This document shows positions 445 through 17,369 of a stretch of DNA of 18,102 nt, piece by piece; position 1 is the first letter of the stretch, and the number at the start of each line of letters is the position of its first letter. The DNA is taken from assembly GCA_039714075.1 (NCBI GenBank), contig JBDLKA010000076.1, forward strand, positions 1 through 18,102, given 5' to 3'. The translations under genes were made by a program, and so were the position numbers. A model generated the notes under the pieces. It made no database searches and was not told where the DNA came from. It was given only the letters and a program-made list of their open reading frames with translations. This DNA is from Candidatus Krumholzibacteriota bacterium (lineage in GTDB: Bacteria; Krumholzibacteriota; Krumholzibacteriia; LZORAL124-64-63).

Positions 445-1128
445 CTACTGCGGTGCCTCGGTCCCCGGATAGGTCGTCATCGAATAGGGAATATGGCCGC
501 TGTCCGCGAAGGCAACCAGCTTCTTCGACCCGTCCGCCCGCACCTGCACGACGGTCAGGCTGCAGTTGGCGATGCTCATCTGCAGCCAGGCCAACCGGTC
601 GACCTCCAGAACCTGCGTCGTGAACCACCGGATCACATTGCCGTGGCAGACGACAATGTCGTATTCGTTCGCGTCACCGGAAGCCGGCACGAAGATCCGC
701 TTCCAGGCCGCCTCCAGATTCGCTTCGCACTCCTCGGCCTCCCCCGGCTCCATGTCGGCCATGACGTCTTCACGCCGCGTGGCAGGCGTACACTCGCGTA
801 TGTCCCGGTGCAGAACCAGCTCCAGCTTCGGAAACGACGAAGCGATGATCTCGCCCGTCTGCCGCGCGCGGGTCATGGCGCTGGCCTGGATGGAAGTGAA
901 TTCCAAAGGCATGGCCTCCAGGCGGTCGGCAACGATCCGCGCCTGCTGCCGGCCCAGGGCCACCAGACCACAGCCTTCATCCTCGTCGCACTCCTGGTCG
1001 TGTTCATATTCCCCGTGACGGATCAAGAAGATGGTGCGCACCGGCTCGTCGCGATCGGGCAGGACCGCGGCGGCGGGCAGGGCGGTCAACAAAGAAAACA
1101 AAACACTGAAAAAAATCAGGCGGCGCAT
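445..1128 (-). CDS. Secreted histidine phosphatase (phosphoglycerate mutase superfamily), PGAM5-like, 227 aa
   Basis: IFLIRHG catalytic motif, LGRQQA, SAMTRARQT, VVCHGNVIR, SIANCSLT. Start moved to ATG 1128 (MRRLIFFSVLFSLLTALPAAA signal peptide; GGGAG upstream). Confidence 0.9.
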   Translation of the reverse strand: MRRLIFFSVLFSLLTALPAAAVLPDRDEPVRTIFLIRHGEYEHDQECDEDEGCGLVALGRQQARIVADRLEAMPLEFTSIQASAMTRARQTGEIIASSFPKLELVLHRDIRECTPATRREDVMADMEPGEAEECEANLEAAWKRIFVPASGDANEYDIVVCHGNVIRWFTTQVLEVDRLAWLQMSIANCSLTVVQVRADGSKKLVAFADSGHIPYSMTTYPGTEAPQ

Positions 1129-1233
1129 GGGAACTCCCGGGGTTGGGGTTGATTGTCCGGGTGATTCTACACTATGTTCCCCGGACGAGCCTAGTCCCAC
1201 GCTTCACAAATACCCTGAAAGGCCGCCTCAGCA

Positions 1234-1617
1234 ATGATCCATATCAAGACCACCTCCAAATCCCTGGCAGACGTAGCCAAGGCCCTGGAAACCGTCGTGC
1301 CCGAGCACAAATTCGGCCTGCTGCATGTCCATGACCTCAAGAAAACCATGGAAGACAAGGGCGTGGAATTCGCCCGGGAATGCCTGGTTTTCGAGGTCTG
1401 CAATCCGCATCACGCCAAAGCGGTACTGGACGAGGATATCCGGGTCAACCTGGCGCTGCCCTGCCGGATCGGGGTCTGGGAGGAAGGCGGGGAAACCAAG
1501 GTGGGAACCCTTTTGCCGACCCAGTTGATGGGAGTCTTCGGCGACGGCCCGGCCATGGATGAAACCGCGGCCGAGGTTGAAAAAACCATGTTGGCAATCA
1601 TCGAGGATGTGCTCTGA
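1234..1617 (+). CDS. DUF302 domain protein, 127 aa
   Basis: FGLLHVHDLKKTM..KG, VFEVCNP..A, LALPCRIGVWE and 'A.EVE..M..II' match the DUF302 pattern. Confidence 0.88.
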   Translation: MIHIKTTSKSLADVAKALETVVPEHKFGLLHVHDLKKTMEDKGVEFARECLVFEVCNPHHAKAVLDEDIRVNLALPCRIGVWEEGGETKVGTLLPTQLMGVFGDGPAMDETAAEVEKTMLAIIEDVL

Positions 1618-1644: not shown

Positions 1645-4227
1645 TCACTCCACCCGAGTCTTGAAACTCACGCTGAAGCCGGGATGGTTCACCCCGTCCG
1701 AGGCGGCAAACGCACCTTTGGGCACCACGCGCATGTGCGTCACCACGGGGTCGAAACCCAGGACGTCGGGCACTGGCACGTAGTTCCAGGTGGCGCCGCC
1801 GTCGCTGGAAAACTCCAGGTCGTCGGCCGGATCCGCCAATCCGCCGTAGGTGTAGCTCATCCCCCCGGGCGTCACACCGTCCGCGAAAGCTACCGGTCCG
1901 GATCCCGCACCCGCGAAATCACCCACGAAAACCGCCGTGTTCGCCGGGATGGGATCGGTCATGGCCAGGGCGTCGGCGTCGGCCGGACCCGGGCCCGTAT
2001 TGACCGCCGTGATGACGTTCAGAACCACCGCCCCGGGGATGGCCTTGGGATTGGCCAGCAGGTTCACGGGATCCGATTCGGTCACCGTGGTCTTGCTGAC
2101 CAGGATGTTGGGGACCAGCGCGGTCACCGCGGTTACACCGCCGAACTCCGAAGTGGATCCACCCATCGTGGCGGTCATGGTCAGCAGGTCGCCCGTGACC
2201 ACGCCGGCCGGCAGCGGGATCACGAACTGGAAACGGTTGGTGTTGTCCTGGCCGACCGGAACTCCGTTCACCGGCAGGGGACCGTACAGGCTGGTCGTCC
2301 CGTCCAGGTCCAGCGCCGAACCCTCGGTCAGGGTCGTGACGTAGGTTTCCCCTTCCCCCAGGCCCGACGGGTCGGCGGCCGCGATGAACATTTCGATCAT
2401 CGAGCCCGGCCGCGCCCAGCCGCTCAGGGTAAGTTCGCCGCCGACGTTGAGCGCCGATTCCAGCACCGGGAAATTCAAAAGGTCATTGCCGCCCGCATCA
2501 CCGTCGCCGTTGTCGTTCAGGGTATAATAGGGAGCCACGCCGCTACGATCGTTTTCGCCGCCGGCCAGCAGATCGATCCCCACCTGGCCCGTGGGCGCCC
2601 ATCCGCCGGTATTGGTGATGGTGCCGTTCCCGTAAATTGAATTCCGGGTAATGGTCACCGCGTTCGCCGCCGGAACGACCATCACGCCCGCACCGTAATT
2701 CTCGGCCAGGACGTTGCCCTGAACCAGGAGGCCGCCGCTGACAACCCGCACGCCCGGGGTTTCCGTGCCGCCGATCGCGGCCATACCGTTGCGGCGGATC
2801 GTATTATCAAGCAGGGTGATTGCCGCCGAACCGGCCTCCACATCCACCCCCGCGCCACCGTTTTCGTGGATCAGGTTTCCGGTCACCGTGACATTCGAAC
2901 ACCCGTCCAGGCTGAGGCCGTTCTGCGCCCCGTCGGACTGGGCGTTGGCGAAGATCTCGTTGCCTTCGATCAGCCATCCGTCGGTACCCGCCCGCGCCTC
3001 GACGCCGTGCCGGTCGCTGAAGGCGATCAGGTTTCCGTGGAGCGTCCCGCCGGTCGCCCCCGCCAGGGTGATCACCGGCACCGACCGCCAGGCGCCGGGA
3101 TCGGTGAATCCCCCGGGACCCGTGCCCAGGACATTTTGTTCGATGATCGTGCCGGCGCAAGTCTCGACCAGAATGTTCCCCATGGCCGCACTCCAACCGA
3201 AACTCGAAAAGCTGTGGACCGAAAGGTTGCGCACGGTCGTCAGGTCGGCCTGGATGCGCAGTCCGAACAACGTCCCGTTGGAACCGGCAATCTCGAGTTC
3301 GGGCCGGGCGACCGTCGCCACGGCCGCGCCGCTCGTTCCTACCCCTCCTCCGGTTCCCAAAACACCTGGATTCGCATCGAGGATCGCGACTCCGTTCGCC
3401 GCGTCGAAGGCCACGCCGTCCACTGTCGTTCCCGGGTCCGTCAGGGCCGGCAGATTGGCAGTCAGCGACAAACGCCACCACTGTCCTCCACCGCCCGAGG
3501 CATTGGGCGCCACCGCCGGGACGAAGCGCATCACGTTGTCACCCACCATGGCGTTGGCGTTGACCAGGAACTGCCGCAGGCTGCCCTGCACCGCGGTGCT
3601 GCCTCCGCCCAGCGGATTGGTCACCACGGTGAAGCTGAAGCCGAAATCGATATTGTCGGCGTGGGGACCGCTGACGTCCGCCCGGCCCACATGCTGGTAA
3701 ATATTATCCGCCGGATTGGTGCTGCCCGTGTTGAAGCCGTCCGAAACCCCGGGGGTCGCCCCACCGAAGCGCGGCCCCACATCCAGGGCGATGGTGGTGG
3801 GATCATCTCCCACCGTCTGCTGGGCCCAGACGTTCGCCGGGCCGAATCCGCCGTTGAAACCCGCCGAAGGGCTCATGCCCCGGGAATTCACCGCCACCAG
3901 GTAATAATCCCCCGTGGCATTGGTCTCGACCTTGAAATTGAAGGCCCCCGAGGCGTTGGTGGTATGTTCCTCCAGGAAGGTGTCGCCCGCGTCGACCAGG
4001 CCATTGTTGTTGCCGTCCCTGTACAGGCGCACACCCAGCCCGCTGGTTTTAAAGTCGCCCACGAGGGAACCGTCGCCCAGAATGTCCTCGTAGACCGTGC
4101 CGCGCACGGTGCGGCGCCGGGCCTCAGCCGTATCCGCCCAAAGAACCGACCCCGCGACCACCAACAACAACATCATTGCCCGCAGTGCTTTTCCTTTATC
4201 CATGGTCATGCCCATTATCCTATTCAT
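1645..4227 (-). CDS. Exported multidomain surface protein/adhesin: SdrD-B-like N-terminal domain, right-handed parallel beta-helix, Ig-like domain, C-terminal truncated DUF11; putative tip subunit
   Basis: Signal peptide ...LLVVAGSVLWADTAEA. 'VRGTVYED..GDG...V.LYRD.NNNG..D.GD......TNASGAFNF' (SdrD-B/CnaB-like). Repeated 'I.GN.I..N...G' beta-helix turns. 'IDL....TLNDNGDGD.GGN.LLNFPVL'. C-terminal 'ILVSKT...AIPGA....I...NTG......TDPIP'. ATG 4227 overlaps the upstream stop; downstream ATGs (4215, 4209, 4203) are alternative starts. Confidence 0.85.
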   Translation of the reverse strand: MNRIMGMTMDKGKALRAMMLLLVVAGSVLWADTAEARRRTVRGTVYEDILGDGSLVGDFKTSGLGVRLYRDGNNNGLVDAGDTFLEEHTTNASGAFNFKVETNATGDYYLVAVNSRGMSPSAGFNGGFGPANVWAQQTVGDDPTTIALDVGPRFGGATPGVSDGFNTGSTNPADNIYQHVGRADVSGPHADNIDFGFSFTVVTNPLGGGSTAVQGSLRQFLVNANAMVGDNVMRFVPAVAPNASGGGGQWWRLSLTANLPALTDPGTTVDGVAFDAANGVAILDANPGVLGTGGGVGTSGAAVATVARPELEIAGSNGTLFGLRIQADLTTVRNLSVHSFSSFGWSAAMGNILVETCAGTIIEQNVLGTGPGGFTDPGAWRSVPVITLAGATGGTLHGNLIAFSDRHGVEARAGTDGWLIEGNEIFANAQSDGAQNGLSLDGCSNVTVTGNLIHENGGAGVDVEAGSAAITLLDNTIRRNGMAAIGGTETPGVRVVSGGLLVQGNVLAENYGAGVMVVPAANAVTITRNSIYGNGTITNTGGWAPTGQVGIDLLAGGENDRSGVAPYYTLNDNGDGDAGGNDLLNFPVLESALNVGGELTLSGWARPGSMIEMFIAAADPSGLGEGETYVTTLTEGSALDLDGTTSLYGPLPVNGVPVGQDNTNRFQFVIPLPAGVVTGDLLTMTATMGGSTSEFGGVTAVTALVPNILVSKTTVTESDPVNLLANPKAIPGAVVLNVITAVNTGPGPADADALAMTDPIPANTAVFVGDFAGAGSGPVAFADGVTPGGMSYTYGGLADPADDLEFSSDGGATWNYVPVPDVLGFDPVVTHMRVVPKGAFAASDGVNHPGFSVSFKTRVE

Positions 4228-7200
4228 GCGGACCACCCATGAAGGCCTTGAGGATGGTGCCCGCGGTTTCCTGGTCGAATTTCAACCGGAAGCGCAGGAA
4301 CGGTCCCTGGGCCGTGAAATCGGCGGCCGAGAAGTCTGCGTCGTAGAAGCCGATGAAGTTGTAGCCCAGGCTCATCCAGACATTGTTCATCACGTTGAAT
4401 CCGAAAGAACCCCCGGCGCTGTAGTCGATCTGCTTCGCGTACCACGAGTGCAGGCCGCTCAGCCTGAAGCCCAGATCCATCCGCGGGCTCAGGTTCTGCC
4501 GTACTTCGCCGCCGAGCAGATCGGTCAAACCCTTGTAGCGACGGCCGGCGATGTCGTCCTGGTTGTACTTGATCCCGTGCTGCAACGCGATCTGGGTGTT
4601 GCGGCCCGAGTAGTAGGTCAGATTCAGATGATTGACGATGCGCCAACCCGACAGATCGGTCGTCAGCGAGTAGCGTTCCTCGGTTACCCAATCCAGCCGG
4701 TCCAGGATGACCCAACCCTCGCGGTCCGGCCGCAGGGCCAATCCCAGGCGGATGTCGTATTTCCTGCGCCGGGATCCGGCCTCCCCTTCGGTGCCCGCGA
4801 TCCGGGCCTTGCCCGCCACACCCAGGCCCGAGCGGGGTTCCACCAGCACGCTGGGCACCACGGCCCATTTGTCGTCCAGGGCCGAGTTGCGGATCTCGAA
4901 GCGACTGTTCCATTGCCAGCGCTCGGCGTTGTAGCCCACGGCCGTCGAAATTGCCGTGAAACCGGCCAACGCCCCCGAAGCGGGCGGGACGTTTTCGTTG
5001 ACCCGCGGTGTGTCGAAACCCTCGGTCGCTTCGCTGTGATCCAGGCCGAAGTCCATGTTCCAGTGATCGCTGACCTTCCACAACTGGCGCAGACCCAGAT
5101 TGGCGAAGGCCCGCGACCCGTTTTCGGTGAAGCGCCGTTCCCAGCTGCTGGTAACACGTCCGCCGGTCCACGGTTTGGTCTCGAAACCGAACCGGGCGCC
5201 GCGCGTGTCCCCCGCCGCTCCGTTGGTGATTTCATAACGGGACAGCAGGTTCAGGTTGCGGACGATTTCAAAATCGGCGCCCAGCGTGGTCCGCGTGGGG
5301 TAGTCCACGTTGCGGTTCTCTCCATCCAGCGACTGCTCGTGGTCCGCCGAGAATTTCAACCGCCGGTTCCGCGTGCTGATTTCCCCGCCGCCGGTGATCT
5401 GGGTCGAACCGTGGTCGTTCAGGACCGTGAACCTGTCCTCTACCCACCGCCCGCCTGCGTGGATACTGAAGATCGAATCACGCCACTGCAGCTTGCCCTC
5501 GATGTTGTCCCGCCGCGAACCGTTGGCCAGGTTGTCCTGCCGCCAGGTCTGGCTCTTGAAGGTCAGACGGGAATTCATTTTCCAGTCCAGGTCCACCCCG
5601 AGCTTGCGCGTGCCCGCTTCACTCCGGTTCTGCTGGCCCAGCCCGAAGCCGACCTCGTTCTGCCTGACGTAGGCCCGGGCGCCAAACCGTCCCGCGGTGT
5701 TCTTGATTTCCGCCAGGTAGGCGTCGTGCCGTCCGGTCATATCCGTGTCGGTAACGACATACTCGCCTTTCAACTCGGTCTGCGGCCCGAACCGGTAACG
5801 GCCGTCCCAACCGATCAGTTCACCCTTGCCGGCGTTTTCCTCCTGGTGAATGAAGGTCGTGCCCAGCTCCAGCTTGCCGCCGGCCGTGGTGACCGCCCCG
5901 CGACCGCCATAATTGTTGTAATCCCCGTCCCTGCTGCGGGTTTCGTAGTTCACCACGATGAAGATCGGGTTCAGGTTCTCGTCCCTGCTCCAGATGGGCT
6001 CCTTGAAGTAGAGCGAGCCGTCCTCATGATCGATGCTGTAGTCCAGATGGCGGGTCAGCTTCCGCGAACCCAGGATGACCTCGCTGCGGAACCGGTCCCG
6101 CACCTCGATCGTGATCTCCTCCGAGTTGATCACCAGGTCACGGCGCGTCAGGTAATACATGCCGCTGGTACCGTCGCCGCGGATCTCATCACGCATATAA
6201 CCGTGGCCGGTCTGGTTGGCGAACAGGTTCAGACCCACGTGTTCGGACTTCAACTCGGACTTGATGCCGTTGAAGTTTCGCGTGTAGCCCGCCAGCTCAT
6301 TGATGGACAGGCCCGTATTGTAGTCACCGAACAGGGCATAGAACTGGCGGCGTTCGATCTTGACGTAGAGCTTGCGCGAACTGGACGCATCGTAGTCCTG
6401 CCGCGAACCGTCGCCGTACAGCGTGAAGTACTGGTCCGGGTCGATCTCCTGGTACAGGGCGCCGGTGTCCCCGTCCCAGTCCTTGCCGGTGTCGAAGGCC
6501 AGGGTCGCCAGCCACTCGCCCCTGATGCTGCCCTTGGCGTAGAAAGCCACCCGGCCGTCGCTGTACCACCTGTCGTCCGGCGCGTTGCCCTGCAGGGGTT
6601 CCATGTTTCCGTTCAAGGTGTTGTAGCCCACGGTTCCCTCGGCCAGGCCCACCAGGATCCAGTCACGGGCGCCGGGTTCCAGCCAGGTTCGCATTTCCTG
6701 CTGATGGCCCTGGAAATGGAAGTGCAGGACGGTTTCGCCCGTCTTGGTCGTGGGCTGCAGCCTGACATGCGCAACCCCGTCCGCTCCCACCACATAGCTG
6801 GGTCTCTGGCGTCGCATTCCGACCAACGGATCCTTCTGGAAATCCTCGAATTCCTGTTGGGACATGTGGGGTGCGTCCACCGTGAATTCCCCGATGATTC
6901 CTTCACGCGCGGGCTGCCCGTCGCGGTCGGTCAGACGCACGGCGATCACGGGCAGGGTCTTTCCGTCCGCCGTCAGGGTCGACTGTTCGGGCAGCATGGT
7001 CGCCAGGACCGGCGGGCTGGCGTAGTGGACATAGCGCGCCTTGCGCCACAGTTCCTTGCCCTTTTCATCGCGCCCGACGGCCACGAACAGGTTCTCCCCT
7101 TCCTTGAGATCGATCCCCGTCCAGATACTGACCGCCACCATGCCGTCATTACTCGCTTTGACGCCGTCGAAATTCACCGCCTCGACCGGCCGGCCGTCCT

Positions 7201-10153
7201 TGATCAGATCGACATGCTTGGCCTCGCTGTGCTGAACGGCGATATCCAGGCTCGGTATCGACGGCCGGTGGTCCACCGGCGGCCACACCCAACCGTCCAC
7301 CGGATCCGCCGCATCCAGCCAGGCCTTGTCGATGTCCGGCATCACCGGAGGCGCCTGGGGTTTGGGCTTGGCTTCCTCCGCACGCAGCCGTGCTTCGCTG
7401 GCGGTGATGCCCACCGTCGGCGTGGTCGTGTGTTCGACCCGGGACACGGTGTCGGTGCTGGCCTGGTTGAACTTTTCGGCCGTGACCACTCGCAGTTCCA
7501 CCCGCCGGTTGAGTTGCCGGCCCTCGCGGGTGTTGTTCGGCGCCACCGGGTTGTCGGGACCCTGGCCAACCAGGGTTATCTGTTTCGCTTCCAGGTCCAG
7601 CGCCGCGCCCAGATACTCCCCGATAGACCGCGCCCGCGCCATCGACAGGACGTAGTTGTCCGCCCAGGTCTTCTGCCCCCGCGGGGTGATGGGCACGTTG
7701 TCCGAATGGCCGGTCACGTGCATGTGCAGCACCTGTCGCGACTTAAGCAGGTCGGCCAGCTGGTTCAGTTCCTGGTAATAGTCCTCGTGAACCGTGGCGC
7801 TGAACGTCTTGAAGCGCGGACGCAATACCACATCCGGCTTCAGGGTCAGCATCTCGTCCAGTTGTAGGCCGACGATCGTGGTGATCGGATCGGTGCGCCG
7901 GATTTCACCGTTGGGCATGGTGAAGGTCAGCTGCGCACCCACCGGCAGGTCACGGCTTTCACTCAGATTGGTCAGATCGGACTCGAACCGCAGCACCAGG
8001 TTCGAATCGGCGTCCGCGCCATCCAGGCCAAAGGTCAGAAAATTGTCCTGGATGTCGGGATCCCCGCAGACTTCGCCGTCCAACCTGGCGCTGCCCGTGC
8101 GGTAGGCCACCCCATCGGGCAGGATCACGGTCAGGACAAGTTTTTCGAGATCGATGGAACCCTCGTTGATGTTCATGCGGCAACTCAGGGTCGTCCCTGT
8201 CCGGGAGGTCGCCAGTTCCAGTCCGACCTCCCCTTCGGGGATGGGTTCGGGGATGAAGTGCAGGTTGAAGTCCGCCCGCCACAGGGTTCCACCCTGGATA
8301 TCGACGAAGCGCGAATAGGGCCGGCCCGCGGAACGTGTGTCGTCCACGCAGGCCAGGGGTTCATGGCGGTCGGGCAAAGTGGCCACGTCGATCTGGACTA
8401 CGTGCGCTCCCGCAGGTACGCCCTCGAAGTGGTAACGCCCGCCGTCGTCGGTGACGCTGAAGGATCCATCCTCCAGGAAAACCCGCACGCCGGGCACGCC
8501 CACCCTTTCCTCGTCGCGAGACAGTTCGCATTCACCCACCACCACGCGCCCGGTGATGAAGCCGGTGTCGCGGAAGTAGGCGTCACGGACCTGGGTGTAC
8601 ACCACGGCTTCGCCGGAGGAAACCCCCTCCTCCGCCTTTGCCCGCGCGGTGCTGACCACCTCGCCGGGGCGGGACCCTGCGGCAACCTCTATCACGTACT
8701 GGATCTGGATGACTCCGAAGATGGGAATGTCACCCAGGTCGAAGTACAGGGTCCGGCCGTCCGCGGACATCCGCGGGATGATGGTCCCACCGCCTTCGGT
8801 GGTCGCGGAACCGTCCTGGAAAGCGAAGCCCGGCGGCAAATTGTCCGTGATGACAGTCTGCAGCGCCGTGCCGACGCCCCGGTTCTGCAGGCGTATGGTG
8901 TATTGCAGGAAATCACCCTGGCTCACCAGATCGCGGTCGGCGGTTTTGGTCAAGGCCAGCTGGTCCGAGGTCGGTATCGGGTCCATCGGCACGTCAAGAT
9001 TGAGCGCGGGACCGGGATTGACGGAGAACGGTTCGCCCCGCGAACCCGGTTCGGCGATGGCGAACGGCGCGCCGGGCAATAGCTGGAGATTGGCGGTCGG
9101 AACGTTTGACGGAGCCGTGTAGGCCAGCGGACTTTCTATCTCCAGGCGATAGTCTCCGACCACCACGAACGGGAACCGGAATCCACCCGGCGGGAAATCG
9201 TACTGGTGTCCCCCGGTGTCCACCACGGTGCCGCCCGAAGTGATGGTCGCGGGGAAGATGCTGGCCCCGTCGTCACCGAACACCACCGCGGGAAGTCCCG
9301 TGGCGGTATTGATCATGGTGATCACGGCCCCGTCGACCGGCAGGCCGGTGACGCTGTCGAACACATGGCCGGTGGGGTCGATCAGGGCGGTCACCGAAAC
9401 GTTGTCGGTGGGGTCGAGGACATCCACGTAGGACGCCTCGGCGGTCTGGTCGGGTTCCACGGTGAGCATCGGATCCAGGGCCCGCGGCGCAATGCCGCCT
9501 TCGGTCTGGACATAACCGACGAATTCACCGGTGTCGGGACCGGTTTCCGTCACCTGAAGCAGGATGTCGTCCCCATCCGCCAGGACTTCCACCCTGATGA
9601 TGACCGTTTCACGCACGGCCGGATCCAGGTTCTGGTCCAAATCTCCCACCCGAATGAAAACGGGTTCACCCTGATGGATCAGGGTCCGCGCCGTCAGCGG
9701 CAGCGGTTGGCTCAGGTCGAGCGGCTGGACCCTGCCCGGCGGCACCGGCGGCGGCAGCGCCATGAACACCCCGGTGGGCGTCCCGTCGGTGCTGTATGAC
9801 GTTTGCGCCACGTTGACCATTTCGGCGTCGGTGCGATTCGGCGCGTACTGGAGAAGTTCAATGGCGGCCGGAGTCCGCAAATCGACCGTGACGATGGTCA
9901 CCAGATTGGACTCGGCGAAAAGGTTGTCGGTGCCGTCCACGGAATAGTTCGCGGTGGCGATGTTGTCGATGATCGTCCCGGGCGGGCTCTGGGCGAACCC
10001 CCGGGTCGGCGCGGCCAACATCCCCACTGTGAGAACGAAAAGCCAAAGGGCGAATGCCGTGGTCCTGAACAGACGGACGCCCGGACATGTCTGAATGACA
10101 CTTCCGGGACGCCCGAACCTGTTCATGTTGCTAAACCGTTTTGCCACTGGCAA
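4220..10153 (-). CDS. Very large outer-membrane protein: N-terminal Ig/CarboxypepD-like and DUF11 domains, central OmpA-like peptidoglycan-binding domain, Ig domains, C-terminal large beta-barrel
   Basis: 1977-aa ORF with signal peptide ending RGFA. 'GHVFDSVTGLPVDGAVITM'. DUF11 'LALTKTADRDLVSQGDFLQYTIRLQN...ITDNLPPGF'. OmpA-C motif 'VTGHSDN...DNYVLSMARA...GPDNPVAPNNTREGRQLNRRVE' (~7480-7830). About 800 aa of amphipathic beta-strands ending 'GPFLRFRLKFDQ'. Start uncertain (TTG 10153 or ATG 10126). Confidence 0.88.
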   Translation of the reverse strand: MPVAKRFSNMNRFGRPGSVIQTCPGVRLFRTTAFALWLFVLTVGMLAAPTRGFAQSPPGTIIDNIATANYSVDGTDNLFAESNLVTIVTVDLRTPAAIELLQYAPNRTDAEMVNVAQTSYSTDGTPTGVFMALPPPVPPGRVQPLDLSQPLPLTARTLIHQGEPVFIRVGDLDQNLDPAVRETVIIRVEVLADGDDILLQVTETGPDTGEFVGYVQTEGGIAPRALDPMLTVEPDQTAEASYVDVLDPTDNVSVTALIDPTGHVFDSVTGLPVDGAVITMINTATGLPAVVFGDDGASIFPATITSGGTVVDTGGHQYDFPPGGFRFPFVVVGDYRLEIESPLAYTAPSNVPTANLQLLPGAPFAIAEPGSRGEPFSVNPGPALNLDVPMDPIPTSDQLALTKTADRDLVSQGDFLQYTIRLQNRGVGTALQTVITDNLPPGFAFQDGSATTEGGGTIIPRMSADGRTLYFDLGDIPIFGVIQIQYVIEVAAGSRPGEVVSTARAKAEEGVSSGEAVVYTQVRDAYFRDTGFITGRVVVGECELSRDEERVGVPGVRVFLEDGSFSVTDDGGRYHFEGVPAGAHVVQIDVATLPDRHEPLACVDDTRSAGRPYSRFVDIQGGTLWRADFNLHFIPEPIPEGEVGLELATSRTGTTLSCRMNINEGSIDLEKLVLTVILPDGVAYRTGSARLDGEVCGDPDIQDNFLTFGLDGADADSNLVLRFESDLTNLSESRDLPVGAQLTFTMPNGEIRRTDPITTIVGLQLDEMLTLKPDVVLRPRFKTFSATVHEDYYQELNQLADLLKSRQVLHMHVTGHSDNVPITPRGQKTWADNYVLSMARARSIGEYLGAALDLEAKQITLVGQGPDNPVAPNNTREGRQLNRRVELRVVTAEKFNQASTDTVSRVEHTTTPTVGITASEARLRAEEAKPKPQAPPVMPDIDKAWLDAADPVDGWVWPPVDHRPSIPSLDIAVQHSEAKHVDLIKDGRPVEAVNFDGVKASNDGMVAVSIWTGIDLKEGENLFVAVGRDEKGKELWRKARYVHYASPPVLATMLPEQSTLTADGKTLPVIAVRLTDRDGQPAREGIIGEFTVDAPHMSQQEFEDFQKDPLVGMRRQRPSYVVGADGVAHVRLQPTTKTGETVLHFHFQGHQQEMRTWLEPGARDWILVGLAEGTVGYNTLNGNMEPLQGNAPDDRWYSDGRVAFYAKGSIRGEWLATLAFDTGKDWDGDTGALYQEIDPDQYFTLYGDGSRQDYDASSSRKLYVKIERRQFYALFGDYNTGLSINELAGYTRNFNGIKSELKSEHVGLNLFANQTGHGYMRDEIRGDGTSGMYYLTRRDLVINSEEITIEVRDRFRSEVILGSRKLTRHLDYSIDHEDGSLYFKEPIWSRDENLNPIFIVVNYETRSRDGDYNNYGGRGAVTTAGGKLELGTTFIHQEENAGKGELIGWDGRYRFGPQTELKGEYVVTDTDMTGRHDAYLAEIKNTAGRFGARAYVRQNEVGFGLGQQNRSEAGTRKLGVDLDWKMNSRLTFKSQTWRQDNLANGSRRDNIEGKLQWRDSIFSIHAGGRWVEDRFTVLNDHGSTQITGGGEISTRNRRLKFSADHEQSLDGENRNVDYPTRTTLGADFEIVRNLNLLSRYEITNGAAGDTRGARFGFETKPWTGGRVTSSWERRFTENGSRAFANLGLRQLWKVSDHWNMDFGLDHSEATEGFDTPRVNENVPPASGALAGFTAISTAVGYNAERWQWNSRFEIRNSALDDKWAVVPSVLVEPRSGLGVAGKARIAGTEGEAGSRRRKYDIRLGLALRPDREGWVILDRLDWVTEERYSLTTDLSGWRIVNHLNLTYYSGRNTQIALQHGIKYNQDDIAGRRYKGLTDLLGGEVRQNLSPRMDLGFRLSGLHSWYAKQIDYSAGGSFGFNVMNNVWMSLGYNFIGFYDADFSAADFTAQGPFLRFRLKFDQETAGTILKAFMGGPHE

Positions 10154-10186
10154 CCCGCCCGGATGACTCCCGGGACAGGAATCCTT

Positions 10187-11275
10187 CTAGTCGATAATGA
10201 CCGAGAAGGTTTCCGTCGCTGCCGATGCGGCGGCCACGGTGAGGTAGACCACCCGGACATCGGTCACGGCGGGGTCGGTTCCGTTGGCGCCGGGCACCGG
10301 ACCATAGGCCCAGGTCGCACCGCCGTCGTTGGAGTAGGAAACCACCGCGGCCGGAACCGTGGCGACCGATCCCACCAGGAACGCGCTGTTGGCCGGGACC
10401 GAATCGATGACCTCGACGTTGTCCGCGGCCAGGGTACCGGAGTTGGTCACCAGGATCGTATAACCGACCGTTGCGCCCGGAATCGCCTTCGGGTTCACGG
10501 CCAGGTTGAAGGGATCGCTGATCACGCTGGTCGTCTTCATGGCGGTCAAGGTGGTGGTGATGACCTTGTATCCGTCCTTGCTCGAGAACCGGCCGTCGGT
10601 AGCTCCGTCGGCCGTACCGGCGCCGTCGCCGAACACGATCTGGATCAGGGCCGGGTCGTCGGCCGCGGCCGCGTCATCGGCGAGGATGTCCGCGCCCTGG
10701 GCGCCACCGGTGCCGCCGGCGGCGGTCTGTGCGATCAGGTCGTAGGAAGCGACATCGTTGTTGACCTGGACCAGCGGGATATCGGACAACACGAACACCG
10801 TGATGGAGGCCCCGGAAGCCAGTTCGTCGATATAGGTGTCGGTGTCGGCGGCGGTGTAGGTGTTGTCGGCGTCGGTATCGACGTAGACGTTCACGTTGAC
10901 CGCGTTGAAGGTCTCGACCTCACCGAAGGCACCGGTGGGCGAATTCAAGGCCGACAGGGAGTAATCCTGCACCGTGTTACCGTTATTGGTCACGGCATAG
11001 GTCAGGACCTGGGCTAAGCCACCGGGAATCACGGCAACGATGGCAGCATCGACCGTGGTCACGGTCAGGTCGACCTTGTTGTCCACCAGGAAACTGGCGA
11101 TGTTGCTGACCACCTGCGTCTGCGGCGTACCGCTGACGGAGAAGTCGAGGGTCGCCGTGTTGTTGATCGGCGTGCCCGAAGGGGTGTTCTGTGCCAGAGC
11201 GATCGAGGACAGACCGAACACCAGGGCGCCGGCCAGCAGGATCACGAACAGGTTCTTTTTGCTACGGATCGTCAT
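10187..11275 (-). CDS. Exported DUF11-family protein, 362 aa; candidate major fibre subunit
   Basis: ATG 11275 with AAGGAGG RBS. Signal peptide ending SIALA. N-terminal 'TPSGTPINNTATLDF'. Middle Ig domain 'IPGG...LTYAVTNNGN'. C-terminal DUF11 'LTAMKTT...AIPGATVGYTILVTNSG...VIDSVP...TFSVIID'. Confidence 0.88.
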   Translation of the reverse strand: MTIRSKKNLFVILLAGALVFGLSSIALAQNTPSGTPINNTATLDFSVSGTPQTQVVSNIASFLVDNKVDLTVTTVDAAIVAVIPGGLAQVLTYAVTNNGNTVQDYSLSALNSPTGAFGEVETFNAVNVNVYVDTDADNTYTAADTDTYIDELASGASITVFVLSDIPLVQVNNDVASYDLIAQTAAGGTGGAQGADILADDAAAADDPALIQIVFGDGAGTADGATDGRFSSKDGYKVITTTLTAMKTTSVISDPFNLAVNPKAIPGATVGYTILVTNSGTLAADNVEVIDSVPANSAFLVGSVATVPAAVVSYSNDGGATWAYGPVPGANGTDPAVTDVRVVYLTVAAASAATETFSVIID

Positions 11276-11305
11276 TTCAAGCCTCCTTGCCAAAATGGCT
11301 TAGGT

Positions 11306-11779
11306 TTACTGCAACTGTGCCCGGAAGGACACGCTTCCCTCGGCGCCCGGCTCCAGAGGATTCTGGAAGGTCCAGCGCACGTGGGTGAAATCGGACTCCT
11401 TGGCAGGGCGCGGTTGGCCCTTGGCGTCCGTGACGGTCAGGTTCCGAGGCGCGTCGTAGCGTGACCCGCCGTCAGCCGACATGCTGACGGTGGCCTGGTA
11501 CGGGCTGTCCTCCACCTGGGTGAAGACCATGTGGTCGGGGATGGGATTGGTGATCACGACGTCCGCCGCGGGTTCCGTCCCGTGGTTGGCGAAAGTGATC
11601 GTGTAGATGACCTCGTCGCCGGGAACGACCTTGCCGGCCTCCACGCGCGTGGTCACTTCCTGCCCCTCTTCATCGGTCGTGGTGATTTCCGTAAGGGCCA
11701 CGGTGTTCAACTCGACGGCCGCATTCGCGACGCCGGCCGACAACAGGACCAGAACGGTGATGGTTAGCACTCTTTTCAT
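11306..11779 (-). CDS. Small exported single-DUF11 protein, 157 aa
   Basis: ATG 11779 with GGAGGAG RBS. Signal peptide ending VANA. 'VVPGDEVIYTITFANHGTEPAADVVITNPIP...VRWTF..LEPGAEGSVSFRAQLQ'. Confidence 0.9.
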   Translation of the reverse strand: MKRVLTITVLVLLSAGVANAAVELNTVALTEITTTDEEGQEVTTRVEAGKVVPGDEVIYTITFANHGTEPAADVVITNPIPDHMVFTQVEDSPYQATVSMSADGGSRYDAPRNLTVTDAKGQPRPAKESDFTHVRWTFQNPLEPGAEGSVSFRAQLQ

Positions 11780-11808
11780 GACTTTCTCCTCCTTCTTTGG
11801 TTCAACGT

Positions 11809-12798
11809 TCAATCAATCGTGACAGTGAATGTGATCGTCTGTCCGGGACCGCCGACGGCCACGTCACCGATTGCCACGGTGATCGTGCCCGATGTTGTGC
11901 CGCCCACATCACCGTTGTCGCCGTCGAGGGCGTCGGTGACGGAGGCTCCGTTCAGCATCAGGGTGCCCGGGTTGTAGGTTGTGTTCAGGGGAATGTCGTC
12001 GCTGATCACGACGTTACTGGTTGTGCCCGTTCCGGTTGCGGTCACGGACAGCTCATAGGTGATGGTGGCTCCGGTTACCGGCCGCGATCCCCCGAAGGGG
12101 TCGACCACCACGGCGGATTTGAGAATGGCCAGCTGCGCGGACAGGGGCACGATGCGGTAGGTTCCCCGATCGTCCGCCAGGCCTCCACCGGCGCCCACCA
12201 CCGCATCCACGCCCATCTCTCCCGCCCCGACGATGACCTCCCCGGGGTTTCCGCTTCCCGTATTGGAGACGACGTCCAGACGGCTGTCCCCCAGCTGGTC
12301 CACGAGGGCGCCGGACGGGATGTCGTTCAGCAGGAACAGCATGGTGAAGGCGTCCGCGGCCAGGACCGGGTCATTGCCGCCGGGGATGTAGAGTTCGTCG
12401 CTGCCCGGGTCGAAGCTGCCGTTCCCGTTGGTGTCCAGGTGGATGTTCGTCAGGTTGGGGTCGAAGTCGTCGCCCGTCAGCGTGCTGAGGCCCGTCAGCG
12501 CGTAGGAGTCGCTGCCGTTGCCGATGTTGGTCAGCCGGAAGGTCAAGGCCTGGCCACCGGCGCCGGGCTGGACCGCAACCGGCGCGGCGTCCTGCCACAC
12601 CAGGCTGAGATCAAGCACCTCGGCCACCGACGTGGTCACGGTGTTGCTGACACCGGAGTAACCAGTACCGGTGATGGTGTAGTTGATGATCGCCTGGCTG
12701 GTGATGTCGGTACCCGCGGGCGTGCCGCCGGCAAAGGCGCAAGCGGCCCCAGCCAGGCAGAAAACCGTTACCGGAATCAGGCGAGAAATAAGCCTCAC
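11809..12798 (-). CDS. Exported DUF11-family protein, 329 aa; candidate minor/adaptor subunit
   Basis: GTG 12798 with GAGGGAAGGA upstream. Signal peptide ending ACAFA. N-terminal 'GTPAGTDITSQAIINY'. 'VQPG....LTFRLTNIGNGSDSY'. C-terminal DUF11 'LAILKSA...TGATITYELSV...VVISDDIP...ITFTVTID'. Confidence 0.87.
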   Translation of the reverse strand: MRLISRLIPVTVFCLAGAACAFAGGTPAGTDITSQAIINYTITGTGYSGVSNTVTTSVAEVLDLSLVWQDAAPVAVQPGAGGQALTFRLTNIGNGSDSYALTGLSTLTGDDFDPNLTNIHLDTNGNGSFDPGSDELYIPGGNDPVLAADAFTMLFLLNDIPSGALVDQLGDSRLDVVSNTGSGNPGEVIVGAGEMGVDAVVGAGGGLADDRGTYRIVPLSAQLAILKSAVVVDPFGGSRPVTGATITYELSVTATGTGTTSNVVISDDIPLNTTYNPGTLMLNGASVTDALDGDNGDVGGTTSGTITVAIGDVAVGGPGQTITFTVTID

Positions 12799-13182
12799 GA
12801 AATCGGATCCTTCCCTCGGCAAATGACGGCGCCCCGGACGAGGGATGGACCCGTCCCTGGGGCGTTCGGGTCCAGCGCCGATCCTTCGGCGCGTAACCCA
12901 TTACTGGCTCTTGTTTTTTCGGGAATTCAAGGGGACGGCTTTAGGGGGATATTCGCTGGGAGGGCACAAGGAACTATAATAATTGCAGGATTTTATCTTA
13001 TTTCTTGGTTTTTTGCATTTTCATTATCGCCCCAGGCCATTTCGATTCTTTGCGAGTCGGGATTCAGGAGGATTTTTGTCGTGACCGGCTCGATATTCTC
13101 AATTAGGATTCGGTTCAACATCATTGAATGACACATCTCGCTCAGAACATTGGATTCGAAAAAACCCTGGAGGGAGTCACTC
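12799..13182. promoter_or_regulatory. Divergent intergenic control region: AT-rich core plus GC-rich hairpins in the DUF11-operon leader
   Basis: Non-coding gap between divergent starts. AT-rich 12970-13030. Inverted repeats gcgccga/tcggcgc (12875-12892) and cgcccc...ggggcg (12830-12864). Exact promoter boxes not assigned. Confidence 0.55.
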
Positions 13183-13719
13183 ATGTTCAAGAAAATCCTG
13201 TTCCTCACGTTGGTGACCGCGGTCCTGTGCCCCCTGACGGCCATGGGCAGCATCTACTTCGGAGCCGGCATCGGAAACTCATGGCAAAGCGCGACCGTCG
13301 AGGCCGGTGATGTATTCGACGAGGTATCGGAGATCAGCCAAAGTTCAACCGGTTGGAAGATTTTTGCCGGTTTCAAGAGCGAGAGCATTTTCGGCATCGA
13401 GGGCGGTTACCGGGACCTGGGCAAGGTCGAGTCCCCGTTTGCCGGATTGAATTACGGGATCAGCAGCGACGGCTGGGACATCGCCGCCATGGGCCACCTG
13501 GAAATCGCGATCATCGATCTCTTCGCCAAGGCGGGCGCCTTTTTCTGGTCCACCGATTCCAACTTCATCGGTGACGACAGCGGGACCTCCTTCCTGTGGG
13601 GTCTGGGTGCGGGGGTTTCCCTCGGGCCGGTCGGTATCCGGCTCGAATGGGAAAGCATGGAGGTTGGATCGATGGACAATCTCTCGATGTTGAGCCTGGG
13701 GGCAACTTTCGGGTTCTAG
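13183..13719 (+). CDS. Small outer-membrane beta-barrel protein (OmpA transmembrane-like / OMP_b-brl), 178 aa
   Basis: ATG 13183 after GGAGGGAG. Signal peptide. 'IYFGAGIG', 'GWKIFAGF....FGIEGGYRDLG', 'DLFAKAG', 'WGLGAG', 'IRLEWE', C-terminal 'LSLGATFGF' BAM-type terminal Phe. Confidence 0.9.
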   Translation: MFKKILFLTLVTAVLCPLTAMGSIYFGAGIGNSWQSATVEAGDVFDEVSEISQSSTGWKIFAGFKSESIFGIEGGYRDLGKVESPFAGLNYGISSDGWDIAAMGHLEIAIIDLFAKAGAFFWSTDSNFIGDDSGTSFLWGLGAGVSLGPVGIRLEWESMEVGSMDNLSMLSLGATFGF

Positions 13720-13802: not shown

Positions 13803-14615
13803 CTACTGGTCGAAATTTCCTTCAGTGGACTTTTCCCTGGTTCCGAAGGGAAGATGATACCGCAACCCCATGGCAAAACCCCCTTCAAATAGACTTTCCG
13901 TTGAACCAAGGCGTACGCTTAGATCCAGATCAAACCGATTCGAAAGCGGCAGGAACACCTGCTGAACAAAGCCAAGACCATCATAAAAACCGGCCGACAA
14001 TCCGGAAAACAGTCGCGCTTTGGAACCAACGGGATAGCCCATGCCAATTTTGAAATAGCCTCCCCCTGAAGCCAACGGGAGATCCTCGTTCAATGAAGTC
14101 TGGAAATTTGCCTTATGGTAGTTTCCGATACGGAGGTGAGAACTCATGGGAAGGTTGTCTGAAGAATCCCCAAAGGTGAAAGGAATTTCACTGCTCAAAT
14201 ACCCGGCCCCGATTCCGATATACTTGCTTTCCATCGCTGCATATGGGTTGTAGTAGCTGTAGGAAACCGATTGTTCATAACTATCACTTATCTGTGCCCC
14301 ATCAACATAGCTGGACAGGGGCATCCGTGCATTGGAATCCAGATTGCCGCCCCGAACGCCCAGGGCGAAAATGACACCACTTTCAGAACAGTGGCTAACC
14401 TGCACCGACCCGGCCATGTCTACGAATTTGTTTTTTTCCGACGCGATGGGATTGCCGGAGCAATCCCGAATGACCGAGACCACCTGGCCGACACCCCCAT
14501 GGGCACTGACCGTTAATTCATCGGGATGTTCCGGGTCGATCCGTATTCCGATGGGCATGACAATTATGAACAACCACAAGGTCGTCCGACGTAATTTGTA
14601 GGCAAATCCACCCAT
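13803..14615 (-). CDS. Hypothetical protein, 270 aa, possibly an outer-membrane beta-barrel
   Basis: AAGGGGG RBS, N-terminal hydrophobic stretch, Gly/aromatic alternating strands (YIGIGAGY, YFKIGMGY, FDLDLSVRLG, FAMGLRYHLPF). Confidence 0.6.
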   Translation of the reverse strand: MGGFAYKLRRTTLWLFIIVMPIGIRIDPEHPDELTVSAHGGVGQVVSVIRDCSGNPIASEKNKFVDMAGSVQVSHCSESGVIFALGVRGGNLDSNARMPLSSYVDGAQISDSYEQSVSYSYYNPYAAMESKYIGIGAGYLSSEIPFTFGDSSDNLPMSSHLRIGNYHKANFQTSLNEDLPLASGGGYFKIGMGYPVGSKARLFSGLSAGFYDGLGFVQQVFLPLSNRFDLDLSVRLGSTESLFEGGFAMGLRYHLPFGTREKSTEGNFDQ

Positions 14616-14632: not shown

Positions 14633-15502
14633 CTACTGATCACGACTCCCTTTTTGAACGCGCTTGAAGCTGTTGAATCTTGTCAATAAAGCATCGAACC
14701 CGGCTTTCTCGTGCGTGGAAAGTCCGTTCAGCCGCGAGCGATGGTCCTGCGGCTGAGGCAGGATCCGCCAGTTTTCACCTTCCAATACCAGGAAGGCTTT
14801 TTCCAGTTCATACTTTTCCGGAAAGTCCGGGGACGTCTGCTCGAAAGCACAAAGGGCCAGGCGCCCGTCAGCAATGGTTTCAACCACCCGGTTGATGATC
14901 CGGTGGTCGGCGAAAAACACCACTCCTTCCTCGACAAACCTGCTCACAGCCTTTTTCTGATCGGGGTTATGCATCAGGAACAATTCCGGTGCTTCACCGG
15001 CCTGCCCGTTCTGAAGCAGATCAAACAGATGCTGAAGAACACTATCTGCGGGACACGCGGCCATCGTCGTTGTTTCGGAGGCGGTGGGGGTTTCCTGTTC
15101 GGGGATTCCGGCCCCCTGTGCGCTGTCAACGGAACTGAAAACGGTATAATAGACAAGACCCGCTATCGACCAGAATACGATCCAGCTCAGGTGTTTTCCC
15201 TTTGATGCCGCCAGGGCCATCGCACCACTGAGAAAAAACACGGCACCGACAGTCAACAAAACCACCCGCGCCGGGTCAGCCGTTTCGCGGGAAACGGACC
15301 ACACCAGAAAACCCAGACCCCACCAGGCGACGGTTGTCAGGTGCCAGGCAAACCGAAGGGTTCTTTTGGTGAAGAAGTCACTGCCGAAAAGATGTGGAAT
15401 ACGCGAACTCCGAAACAGGCGTATCAGGATGAAGCGCTCGCCCAGGTACGAGTGGACAACTCCAATGGCGAAGCAGAGTATGGCTGCCGTCAGCAATACC
15501 AT
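14633..15502 (-). CDS. Hypothetical protein, 289 aa: ~122-aa four-TM membrane domain, linker, soluble C-terminal domain; lies directly after an attC site
   Basis: GGAGGGA RBS. 'GVVHSYLGERFILIRLF...FTKRTLRFAWHLTTVAWWG...KHLSWIVF' hydrophobic domain, then PEQETPTASETTT linker and a hydrophilic domain. Confidence 0.75.
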   Translation of the reverse strand: MVLLTAAILCFAIGVVHSYLGERFILIRLFRSSRIPHLFGSDFFTKRTLRFAWHLTTVAWWGLGFLVWSVSRETADPARVVLLTVGAVFFLSGAMALAASKGKHLSWIVFWSIAGLVYYTVFSSVDSAQGAGIPEQETPTASETTTMAACPADSVLQHLFDLLQNGQAGEAPELFLMHNPDQKKAVSRFVEEGVVFFADHRIINRVVETIADGRLALCAFEQTSPDFPEKYELEKAFLVLEGENWRILPQPQDHRSRLNGLSTHEKAGFDALLTRFNSFKRVQKGSRDQ

Positions 15503-15537: not shown

Positions 15538-15635
15538 AACAAACTTTGGGCCCATCCGCGAAATCGATTGGTGGGAAACTGGCGAAAGCCGGATGCGTGA
15601 CAAGCGGCTTTGTCAGGTGCAAGCTCCTGTTAGCC
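15538..15635 (-). mobile_element. Integron attC site (degenerate right half), 98 bp
   Basis: Minus strand: R'' GGCTAAC (contains the upstream gene's TAA), AGGAGC, L'' TTGCACCTGAC, 52 nt, GCGGATGGG, CCCAAA, GTTTGTT. Gap-free colinear with the attC at 16656-16753. Confidence 0.75.
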
Positions 15636-16640
15636 GTTCACAGACACTAACGCCAACTCCAGCTCATGCGCTTCGTCAGGCTGGATGCCCACCGCACGAA
15701 CCCTTCGACATGTCCCATACGGTCCTTGCACATATACCGCCTCTGAGAAAATAATCCAATGCGTAGGCGGGCCAATCAGTTTGAGATTTAGGGATTCCTT
15801 ACCAAATTCTGGTTGCTTGCTGCAAATTTCGGAAATCTCGGACCGCGAAACATCCATAGTATATCGGAGCCCACTGCGGATCAGAACACGCTTTTCGCCA
15901 ACTAGAATCGGGCGAAGCACCGTTGCGCGATAGTCGGCAACCATCCACAGTGCTCCGTATGCGGAGCTAAGAGTGAAGAGCCACGCCGCGGCCGAATTCC
16001 ACATGGAGAGCAACAAATGTACAGCGAACCCCTCAACCGCCAAAAGCACGACAAAGCCTAATACGATTCCTGCCTGACCACTTCGACGGTGGTGGGTGAA
16101 CGCTGCTGTACCTGCAAGATCGTGGGGTACCGACCGCCACGCGCCCAACGCGTAATAGAAGATTCCAATTTCGGAAGCGAATACCCCTGCTGCTCGATTG
16201 TTGCGCAACAACCCAAAGGCCGCGCTCCGGAATTGTTCAAGGGGGTCCAGGGCTACACTGCGTCGTGCTTCACGCAATGCCCTTCCGGCACGCCAAATGA
16301 TCCACCCCAACAAACCTAATTCTGCGGGGACAACAATTGCTTCAAGAAAATGTAGCGTCCGTTGGTGACCGGAAGGAAGCACTATGGAGGCTACCAGCAA
16401 GCTGGCCACTACAACGGGGGCCAACCTGAAAATGGAGTGCCCGGCCCGACGTACCAAAAGAAAGTAAAATGCCAGCGGGACCAGGATAACCATGTCAATT
16501 GTCAGCCCAATGACAACAACACCAGCGCTCTCGATGCTAGACAGCCGACTAACTACGGTCAAAGCAGTTGCATAGACCGCCGTTACGACGCCCAAGAACA
16601 ATAGGAGTGGCATACGTTGATTTGGTATGGCTTGAATCAA
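15630..16640 (-). CDS. Multi-pass membrane protein of unknown function (gene cassette), ~336 aa
   Basis: Several hydrophobic helices. Start placed at TTG 16640 (GGAGAGGG upstream) or ATG 16613, because the ORF-track extension to 16721 runs through an attC. The stop lies inside R'' of the next attC. Confidence 0.8.
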   Translation of the reverse strand: MIQAIPNQRMPLLLFLGVVTAVYATALTVVSRLSSIESAGVVVIGLTIDMVILVPLAFYFLLVRRAGHSIFRLAPVVVASLLVASIVLPSGHQRTLHFLEAIVVPAELGLLGWIIWRAGRALREARRSVALDPLEQFRSAAFGLLRNNRAAGVFASEIGIFYYALGAWRSVPHDLAGTAAFTHHRRSGQAGIVLGFVVLLAVEGFAVHLLLSMWNSAAAWLFTLSSAYGALWMVADYRATVLRPILVGEKRVLIRSGLRYTMDVSRSEISEICSKQPEFGKESLNLKLIGPPTHWIIFSEAVYVQGPYGTCRRVRAVGIQPDEAHELELALVSVNG

Positions 16641-16655
16641 AATTTTTCCCTCTCC

Positions 16656-16753
16656 GCCGGACGTTGGGTTCACCTGCAAACGTGTTTGGCACGAACCTGG
16701 CGCCAGCACGGTGAGTGCCAAGTGGCTTTGTCAGGTGGAAGCTCTTGTTCGCT
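16656..16753 (-). mobile_element. Integron attC site, 98 bp
   Basis: Minus strand: AGCGAAC, AAGAGC, TTCCACCTGAC ... TTGGCAC/GTGCCAA stem ... GCAGGTGAA, CCCAAC, GTCCGGC. L''/L' pair with extrahelical bases; R' has GTC instead of GTT. Confidence 0.85.
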
Positions 16754-16784: not shown

Positions 16785-17078
16785 CTACCCCAGTATCGAA
16801 TCCAAGTCCTGGGCCGCGCCGAGAATGCGTGCTATTTCTACGGGCTTGCTTCCCGATATGTAAACAACCATGTAGGAATAAACTGGAAAGAACCTAACAG
16901 CCCGAGATGTCAAGTCATCGCGATAGTGCCCAGCCTCGGGATTCTCAGCCAGCAGTTGGAATACTTCAAAAAACCGAGCATGAACATCAAGCGCTGACTG
17001 GACGTTATCTGCTGCAATGTACTCCAGTATTGCATCGAAGTCGGCTTCAGCCTCATTCGAGAAAATATAATCGGACAT
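16785..17078 (-). CDS. parE: Type II toxin, RelE/ParE family, 97 aa
   Basis: 'FSNEAEADFDAILEYIAADN..A......F..LAENPEAGHYRDDL....RFFPVYSYMVVY......IARIL' ParE pattern; starts 1 nt after the antitoxin stop. Confidence 0.9.
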   Translation of the reverse strand: MSDYIFSNEAEADFDAILEYIAADNVQSALDVHARFFEVFQLLAENPEAGHYRDDLTSRAVRFFPVYSYMVVYISGSKPVEIARILGAAQDLDSILG

Positions 17079-17079
17079 A

Positions 17080-17337: not shown

Positions 17338-17369
17338 AGCCTCGCCTCCCATAGCTGATGTGTGGTCTC

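Follow-up and report, generated by a model that had tools for sequence, protein, structure and literature searches.

Five co-oriented genes on the minus strand of the 18,102-nucleotide contig JBDLKA010000076.1 (analysed whole, and called here the window), from a Candidatus Krumholzibacteriota genome that is 92% complete, seem reasonably likely to build a surface fibre whose subunits are joined by donor hairpins and locked covalently, with protein E at the tip and, as the anchor, protein D, which combines an OmpA domain with a predicted barrel of 31 strands or more. The open reading frames (ORFs), which span positions 1645-12798 with intergenic gaps of 0-60 bases, the stop codon of gene D overlapping the start of gene E, were named A (329 amino acids, aa), B (157 aa), C (362 aa), D (1977 aa) and E (863 aa). 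They lie where a previous sequence-only reading of this DNA had put them, and the four C-termini and three N-terminal segments quoted in it are present letter for letter. That reading had proposed that the N-terminal hairpin of one subunit completes the C-terminal DUF11 domain of its neighbour; profile halves, gene fusions, a split residue triad and a two-copy model of C agree with this proposal, to which we add the splitting of the Lys/Asp/Asn triad and the acceptor-only role of B.

Our reference profile of 136 positions drew on 42 unrelated giant proteins, which supplied 211 complete DUF11 repeats arranged in tandem (sampled, keeping at most six per protein, from 459 repeats in 61 giants). 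On this profile, the C-terminal half-domains of A and C covered positions 2-90 and 4-89, respectively, and the N-terminal segments of mature A, C and D matched positions 93-125 (single-sequence E values 3e-5 to 2e-4). The piece missing from the truncated domains is a two-strand hairpin that bears the isopeptide Asn. The internal DUF11 of D, already noticed to continue past this point, spans the cut (profile positions 4-110 and beyond). The C-terminal halves of B and E aligned only piecewise, owing to insertions; in profile comparisons with the C half-domain they gave probabilities of 98.3 and 99.95, respectively. A compared with C gave a probability of 100 at 29% identity, indicating on sequence grounds that A is a paralogue of C. 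TIGR01451 scored above its cut-off in A, B, C and D, and PF01345 in B, C and D; all matches to these two families in the genome lie in this locus. Signal peptides were identified by eye.

The position of the stop codon is conserved. Among 80 genome loci, excluding ORFs truncated by the locus end or outside the length range, it fell five residues past the strand-E aromatic in 58/62 A, 70/72 C, 74/75 B and 42/43 E-like genes (244/252 in total), indicating that the truncation of the domain is more than chance and extending to relatives the earlier observation that one and the same strand ends all four smaller proteins. Conversely, a profile of the D donor matched the N-terminus of A in 93/96 relatives, of C in 128/141, of B in 0/139 and of E-like proteins in 5/63; two of these five are in fact C genes whose reading began too far upstream. 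By sequence, then, the pattern of donor-only, both and acceptor-only proteins is real and general, as the polarity scheme of the sequence-only reading had it; the scheme had, however, left out B, which is a second acceptor-only protein besides E.

The domain family has been renamed CLIPPER, and the available text of that work describes a crystal structure with an isopeptide bond between Lys715 and Asn806 and Asp748 as the presumed catalyst (PMC12617251). In our complete repeats, for which the Lys was a selection criterion, the Asp lay at +34 from it in 208/211 and the Asn at +91 in 209/211, as compared with +33 and +91 in that structure. The operon is cut between the triad Asp and Asn, leaving Lys and Asp in the C-terminal half and Asn in the N-terminal hairpin. 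A continuous CLIPPER domain with all three residues is absent from A, B, C and E, which stop at about position 90 of 136; the full uninterrupted triad occurs only in the internal copy of D, in relatives. We counted the triad by protein class in 160 loci, which are partly kin and were selected through C with patterns lacking all three residues. C relatives had the Lys in 140/141, the Asp in 139/141 and the Asn in 134/141. The corresponding figures for A were 92/96, 91/96 and 76/96, its donor carrying Ser in 13 and Thr in 4 relatives at the Asn position, and E-like proteins had Lys in 59/63 and Asp in 58/63. The donor Asn of D was found in 64/69 relatives, and its internal whole domain had Lys in 113/116, Asp in 114/116 and Asn in 104/116 (3 of 119 relatives gave no match).

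Three natural tandem C-C fusions of 696-700 aa place the pairing between units. In them, acceptor 1 is joined directly to donor 2, with no remnant of a signal peptide at the junction, which scores like an intact domain (profile 5-111 to 5-120), and the outer donor 1 and acceptor 2 remain open. Structure models were consistent with the same arrangement. The monomer of C was modelled with high confidence (predicted local distance difference test, pLDDT, 97.5; predicted template modelling score, pTM, 0.85), with hairpin, immunoglobulin (Ig) domain and half-domain in series, and aligned lengthwise with tandem Ig arrays, for example that of Streptococcus mutans P1 (residues 19-334, Z 7.6, root-mean-square deviation, r.m.s.d., 5.5, 233 aligned). 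When two copies of mature C were modelled as a complex, the hairpin of one lay in the groove of the other, and not folded back within its own chain, with a score of 0.67 (0.66-0.69) as compared with 0.00 for the best of three controls; the runs shared at least 96% of their contacts, and the partner had a pLDDT of at least 91. The mark used for this score is attained by 20/30 solved homo-pairs and 1/23 single chains, counts that are rough with a custom alignment. The modelled interface is one-way, residues 212-269, 319 and 333-334 of copy 1 facing residues 1-39 of copy 2 in an antiparallel register (259 with 17, 261 with 15), and it holds K247 (mature 219) and D291 (mature 263) of copy 1 together with N39 (mature 11) of copy 2. 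The pair is head to tail, with both ends open. The strongest coevolving pair between middle and acceptor domains, T226-F256 (rank 32), lies on opposite sides of this interface, although the same alignment fed the model. Fold searches of C returned generic Ig matches, none outstanding, and 9IFR, a CLIPPER structure, was not among the matches listed; the acceptor half aligned weakly with Jo-In 5mkc (Z 6.8, r.m.s.d. 2.1, 91 aligned). TTHA1873 (7wrk), another fold match of the acceptor, was dropped as it was absent from the structure search with the B profile, and sequence searches of solved structures for relatives were negative with A, C, the C profile, a fusion and the internal domain of D. The middle domains of A (residues 122-129) and C (133-140) carry DxDxD/N-type loops, which we take to resemble calcium-binding loops; D133 was strongly coupled to nearby positions.

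We consider complementation between subunits very likely, and a covalent bond between successive C subunits quite likely from the conserved residues and the model. In the assembly that we envisage, Sec would secrete the subunits, each folding so that its groove stays open and its hairpin free, and in a head-to-tail array the hairpin of one C would fill the groove of its neighbour. By CLIPPER chemistry, the rebuilt core would form by itself a Lys-Asn bond between two chains, losing ammonia, and such interchain bonds would turn the C polymer into a single covalent chain. C is the probable major subunit and would form the shaft; from the architecture, E, with only an acceptor and a variable N-terminus, would stand at the far end, and A is probably an adaptor or minor subunit. 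The donor of D would link the base to the outer-membrane barrel, which the OmpA domain would hold on the cell wall and which would serve as the export pore, and B, unable to bond, would mask hairpins in transit. Growth could proceed by addition at the base until ended by the D donor, like the terminators of chaperone-usher pili, or the D donor could prime the fibre and E cap it.

Several points weigh against this covalent fibre. Fibre, bond, location and expression are all presumed from sequence and models, and a donor tethered on D poses a kinetic puzzle. The three fusions are 69-76% identical to each other, indicating a single event. The two-copy model was built on a custom alignment and reports no Lys-Asn distance, and its pass may reflect likeness to solved Ig or CLIPPER domains, since completing a split fold tends to pass. 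In coevolution analyses of C, the best donor-acceptor pair ranked only 79, and paired donor-acceptor tests did not rise above shuffles. The barrel model of D is middling (pLDDT 70, pTM 0.54, with fragment residues 122-238 below 50). Lastly, a covalent lock is not universal. In this genome the A donor carries Ser34 at a position that is Asn in most relatives, which makes the joint formed by this donor probably non-covalent here, and the internal domain of D also has Ser in place of Asn. The donor Asn is missing in 20/96 A relatives, and several Campylobacterales loci have lost it in the donors of C and, where seen, D (L040, L041, L050, L052, L060 and L068); in others of that order A has neither Lys nor Asp (L044, L051 and L054). 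These loci are possible non-covalent variants. Where the A donor had no Asn, E had no Lys/Asp in 2/11 loci, as compared with 1/38 where the Asn was present, a suggestive difference among kin that are not independent and one that we did not use as evidence.

The same complementation might instead yield a short stalk of fixed composition, for instance D-C-A-E with one or a few copies of each: a fibrillar adhesin divided into modules that can be exported, as opposed to a long pilus. In the available text of PMC12617251 the domain is known for building tandem CLIPPER stalks, the D donor, with its 1:1 tether at the pore, could stop growth at an early stage, and some relatives have multi-domain subunits of 890-1130 aa with donor and acceptor ends. 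On the other hand, in the two-copy model one C is completed by another while the outer ends stay free, and tandem C-C fusions exist. The gene content of the operon bears on the same issue. In the 60 loci with at least 3 kb upstream and at least 6.5 kb downstream of C in view, B and D were beside C in all 60, A in 54 and E in 39, the leading gene orders being ABCDE and ABCD (20 each); this survey kept the donor/acceptor pattern proposed earlier, and the absence of A from 6/60 and of E from 21/60 loci indicates that no fixed hetero-order is needed. We regard a short stalk as unlikely, and the export of a fibre that exceeds a small fixed number of subunits as likely.

A fibre of donor hairpins without covalent bonds, the triad being a relic or a folding aid, is more improbable still. 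It would accommodate the Ser of the A donor, the Campylobacterales losses and the lack of Lys in B, and oligomers of BsaA without the Asn were stable in sodium dodecyl sulfate (SDS) until heated, according to the available part of that study (bioRxiv 10.1101/2024.11.04.621531). Against it, each triad residue is kept in more than 90% of C relatives across many phyla, even though the triad is split between the gene ends, and all three residues fall within the modelled interface.

We modelled residues 1040-1977 of D with an alignment of 40 rows. Despite its middling quality, the model has 31 well-modelled strands of at least eight residues between 1414 and 1957 and about seven poorly modelled strands before the plug-like insertion, suggesting a barrel of up to about 38 strands. 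Structure fold searches and an atlas named no family for it, returning generic barrels and unnamed neighbours only, and a search of solved structures with the D profile returned OmpA domains only. With a model of this quality, PapC ranked 47 among generic barrels (Z 11.2, r.m.s.d. 7.7, 318 aligned) and SprA 6h3i was likewise a generic match (template modelling score 0.27, Z 12.5, r.m.s.d. 14.4). It is very improbable that the chain is a periplasmic one, an envelope tether on the periplasmic arm of D, with the barrel serving another role. The D donor is indeed N-terminal of an OmpA-type periplasmic domain, export is presumed and the barrel family has no name; yet the N-terminal parts of E-like proteins vary widely, as in tip adhesins, the barrel gene accompanies C in every fully seen locus, and 22/120 D relatives list no OmpA domain (our count). 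Least tenable, and largely refuted, is a circular permutation in which each hairpin folds into the C-terminal half of its own chain and the genes encode separate secreted adhesins: although the C monomer is modelled confidently with its hairpin, a donor is absent from B and E and an open acceptor from D, the Ig fold of the middle domain runs from end to end and leaves hardly any linker, the monomer aligns lengthwise with tandem Ig arrays, and fusions and two-copy model pair across units.

The triad Lys is never present in B relatives (0/139, with Asp in 27/139), suggesting that B is a non-reactive acceptor. It has conserved residues of its own (E31, G39, S101-D103-G105, R124 and R135-W136) and a long extra hairpin, and its profile gave only weak matches among solved structures (GhpA, E 0.0034; 9IFR, E 0.35). 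From its sequence, we marginally favour B as a protein that masks donor hairpins in the periplasm; otherwise it would be a cap or an assembly factor. E-like proteins share the acceptor half, and their N-terminal parts differ between loci, with very different beta-helix or lectin-like structures, an architecture from which E is probably a tip adhesin.

SpyTag and DogTag are engineered split isopeptide pairs, and the donor polarity of type V pili is a point of difference from the N-terminal donor found here. Another engineered pair, Jo-In from RrgA (PDB 5mkc), resembles the operon in that a CnaA-like domain in two pieces is joined through Lys and Asn; the operon pair is natural and has donor and acceptor on one chain, which can therefore polymerise. 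The CLIPPER/DUF11 domain (PF01345) of fibrillar adhesins (PDB 9IFR) provides the domain family, the triad with matching spacing and, inside D, a complete copy; the available text describes it as an undivided domain, bonded intramolecularly and arrayed in tandem stalks (PMC12617251), whereas in the operon it is cut between strands E and F and split over chains. Chaperone-usher pili (Fim, Pap), in the portion of the source at hand, share an N-terminal donor that completes the Ig fold of the neighbour, an acceptor-only tip adhesin and a plugged outer-membrane barrel (PMC13721041); the first of these traits is found here by sequence and model. The operon differs from them in a donor of two strands instead of one, the CLIPPER fold, a probably covalent joint, a barrel of at least 31 strands instead of the 24 of the usher, and a candidate chaperone, B, that would accept strands rather than donate them (PMC13721041). 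The sequence-only reading had seen no PapC/PapD-like or sortase gene; likewise, searches of the 92% complete genome, in which positive controls were detected, gave no match to usher PF00577 (nor did D), to PapD-type chaperone PF00345 or to sortase PF04203, and the subunits carry no C-terminal sorting signal, ending on a bare beta-strand.

The lock has closer parallels elsewhere. In BsaA of Clostridium perfringens, of the TasA family, an Asn-bearing donor strand locks itself to a Lys of the receiving subunit, a precedent for donor strand plus self-made inter-subunit isopeptide that supports the covalent fibre; as far as the accessible part of that report goes, BsaA differs in being from a monoderm, of a TasA-like family and processed by SipW, with a single strand, a Glu catalyst and no dedicated barrel (bioRxiv 10.1101/2024.11.04.621531). 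No TasA-family or SipW match exceeded its cut-off in the five proteins or the scanned neighbours, the sole related match, in B, scoring 13.1 against a cut-off of 60. The archaeal thread protein Saci_0406 also combines donor-strand complementation with an inter-subunit isopeptide made without a known enzyme, although in the available text its Asn is bonded to the terminal amine of subunit n+2, and it is archaeal, with neither outer membrane nor barrel (PMC9715654). Type V pili, covered by the same partly available source, are strand-exchange pili of two-membrane bacteria that need no usher, but they are made from lipoprotein precursors activated by a protease (PMC9715654), whereas the operon has plain Ala-x-Ala signal peptides and an N-terminal donor; the family consensus is Ala-x-Ala followed by Gly or Gln, with no conserved lipoprotein +1 Cys. 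By analogy, the operon would thus join a chaperone-usher-like polarity to a lock like that of BsaA and the archaeal threads, yet it departs from each family in its defining traits. Judging from the parts of their descriptions available, CryoSeek TLP-1, the Pam pili of the candidate phyla radiation (CPR), tafi and the Litorilinea hook are other systems.

We found 458 related stretches in a species-genome collection. Among the 80 of these that were kept as C-relative loci, carriers were labelled as belonging to Krumholzibacteriota, Eisenbacteria, Zixibacteria, Campylobacterales, Myxococcota, Desulfobacterales, Spirochaetales and alpha-, beta- and gamma-proteobacteria, and the closest labelled relatives of C (73-78% identity) were from Candidatus Krumholzibacteriia genomes. 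The distribution is patchy within the phylum (12/151 genomes). Harmless carriers in culture include Sphingomonas kyeonggiensis, Novosphingobium and Marinobacterium (loci L061, L067, L087 and L089). A variant operon of the same class (L014:1413-14694) comprises B, a D of 25% identity, a protein of 1485 aa and a multi-domain subunit of 900 aa that begins and ends as donor and acceptor. Five further proteins of 885-1126 aa (P0415, P0428, P0410, P0444 and P0452; two labelled Deinococcus and Thermaceae) start with a donor and end with an acceptor, indicating that the split design extends beyond this subfamily. No viral relatives were found, a plasmid search gave no near-full match, and a search for RNA holders listed none.

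Tentatively, and with rather more doubt than confidence, the operon could represent a widespread and undescribed class of pili in two-membrane bacteria: a natural, enzyme-free Tag/Catcher polymer with B as a reversed chaperone, in which one polypeptide, forming a barrel of as many as about 38 strands, exports and anchors the fibre and ends or primes it with its donor hairpin. In the literature searched, outside which lie most subscription papers, we found neither a description of such an operon, which may be described elsewhere, nor a report combining isopeptide, donor strand and DUF11. If the proposal is correct, Gram-negative biology would gain a new pilus class and a new outer-membrane export machine, thousands of 'DUF11 / OmpA family' annotations would be explained, enzyme-free covalent polymerisation would extend beyond monoderms and archaea, and the loci would offer a library, made by nature, of self-locking fibres and Tag/Catcher pairs.

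Features of the operon in the window
Feature	Positions	Strand	Description
Gene A, 329 aa	11809..12798	-	signal peptide; donor hairpin (24-60); Ig middle domain with DxNxNG loop; acceptor half-domain (K227, D267)
Donor hairpin of A (DUF11 strands F-G)	12619..12729	-	profile positions 93-125
Gene B, 157 aa	11306..11779	-	signal peptide and acceptor half-domain only; Thr26/Asn78 at triad Lys/Asp positions; long extra hairpin (28-47)
Gene C, 362 aa	10187..11275	-	signal peptide; donor hairpin (N39); Ig middle domain (66-240); acceptor half-domain (K247, D291)
Donor hairpin of C	11084..11191	-	Asn39 codon 11161-11159; profile mapping and two-copy model
Acceptor half-domain of C	10190..10555	-	Lys247 codon 10537-10535; Asp291 codon 10405-10403
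Gene D, 1977 aa	4220..10153	-	donor hairpin, Ig-like domains, one complete DUF11, OmpA domain, predicted C-terminal outer-membrane barrel
Donor hairpin of D	9878..9991	-	Asn64; profile mapping
Complete internal DUF11 of D	8579..8965	-	K403, D437; Ser501 at Asn position in this genome
OmpA-family (peptidoglycan-binding type) domain of D, residues 781-883	7505..7813	-	PF00691, E 5e-13
Predicted beta-barrel of D, about residues 1162-1957	4283..6670	-	structure model
Plug-like insertion in D barrel, about residues 1318-1405	5939-6202	-	structure model
Gene E, up to 863 aa	1645..4236	-	signal peptide; beta-helix (best stretch 353-488); acceptor half-domain (708-863; K715, D761); no donor

The length of D follows from a TTG start; the ATG used in databases gives 1968 aa. 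At the locus, promoter and terminator predictions did not exceed those of shuffled controls, and an Rfam search returned 0 matches. Downstream of the operon lie a DUF302 gene (1234-1617, plus strand) and a histidine phosphatase gene (445-1200, minus strand). On its other side, a gene for a small OmpA-like transmembrane barrel (13150-13719, plus strand) is oriented away from the operon, followed by three minus-strand ORFs with no Pfam match, of which, by eye, that at 13803-14615 resembles an outer-membrane barrel and those at 14633-15502 and 15630-16721 resemble membrane proteins. Beyond them, a ParD antitoxin and ParE toxin pair (16785-17352, minus strand) and a Fic/Doc family gene (17573-17971, minus strand) occupy a stretch of lower GC content (51-55%, as compared with 61-66% in the operon).

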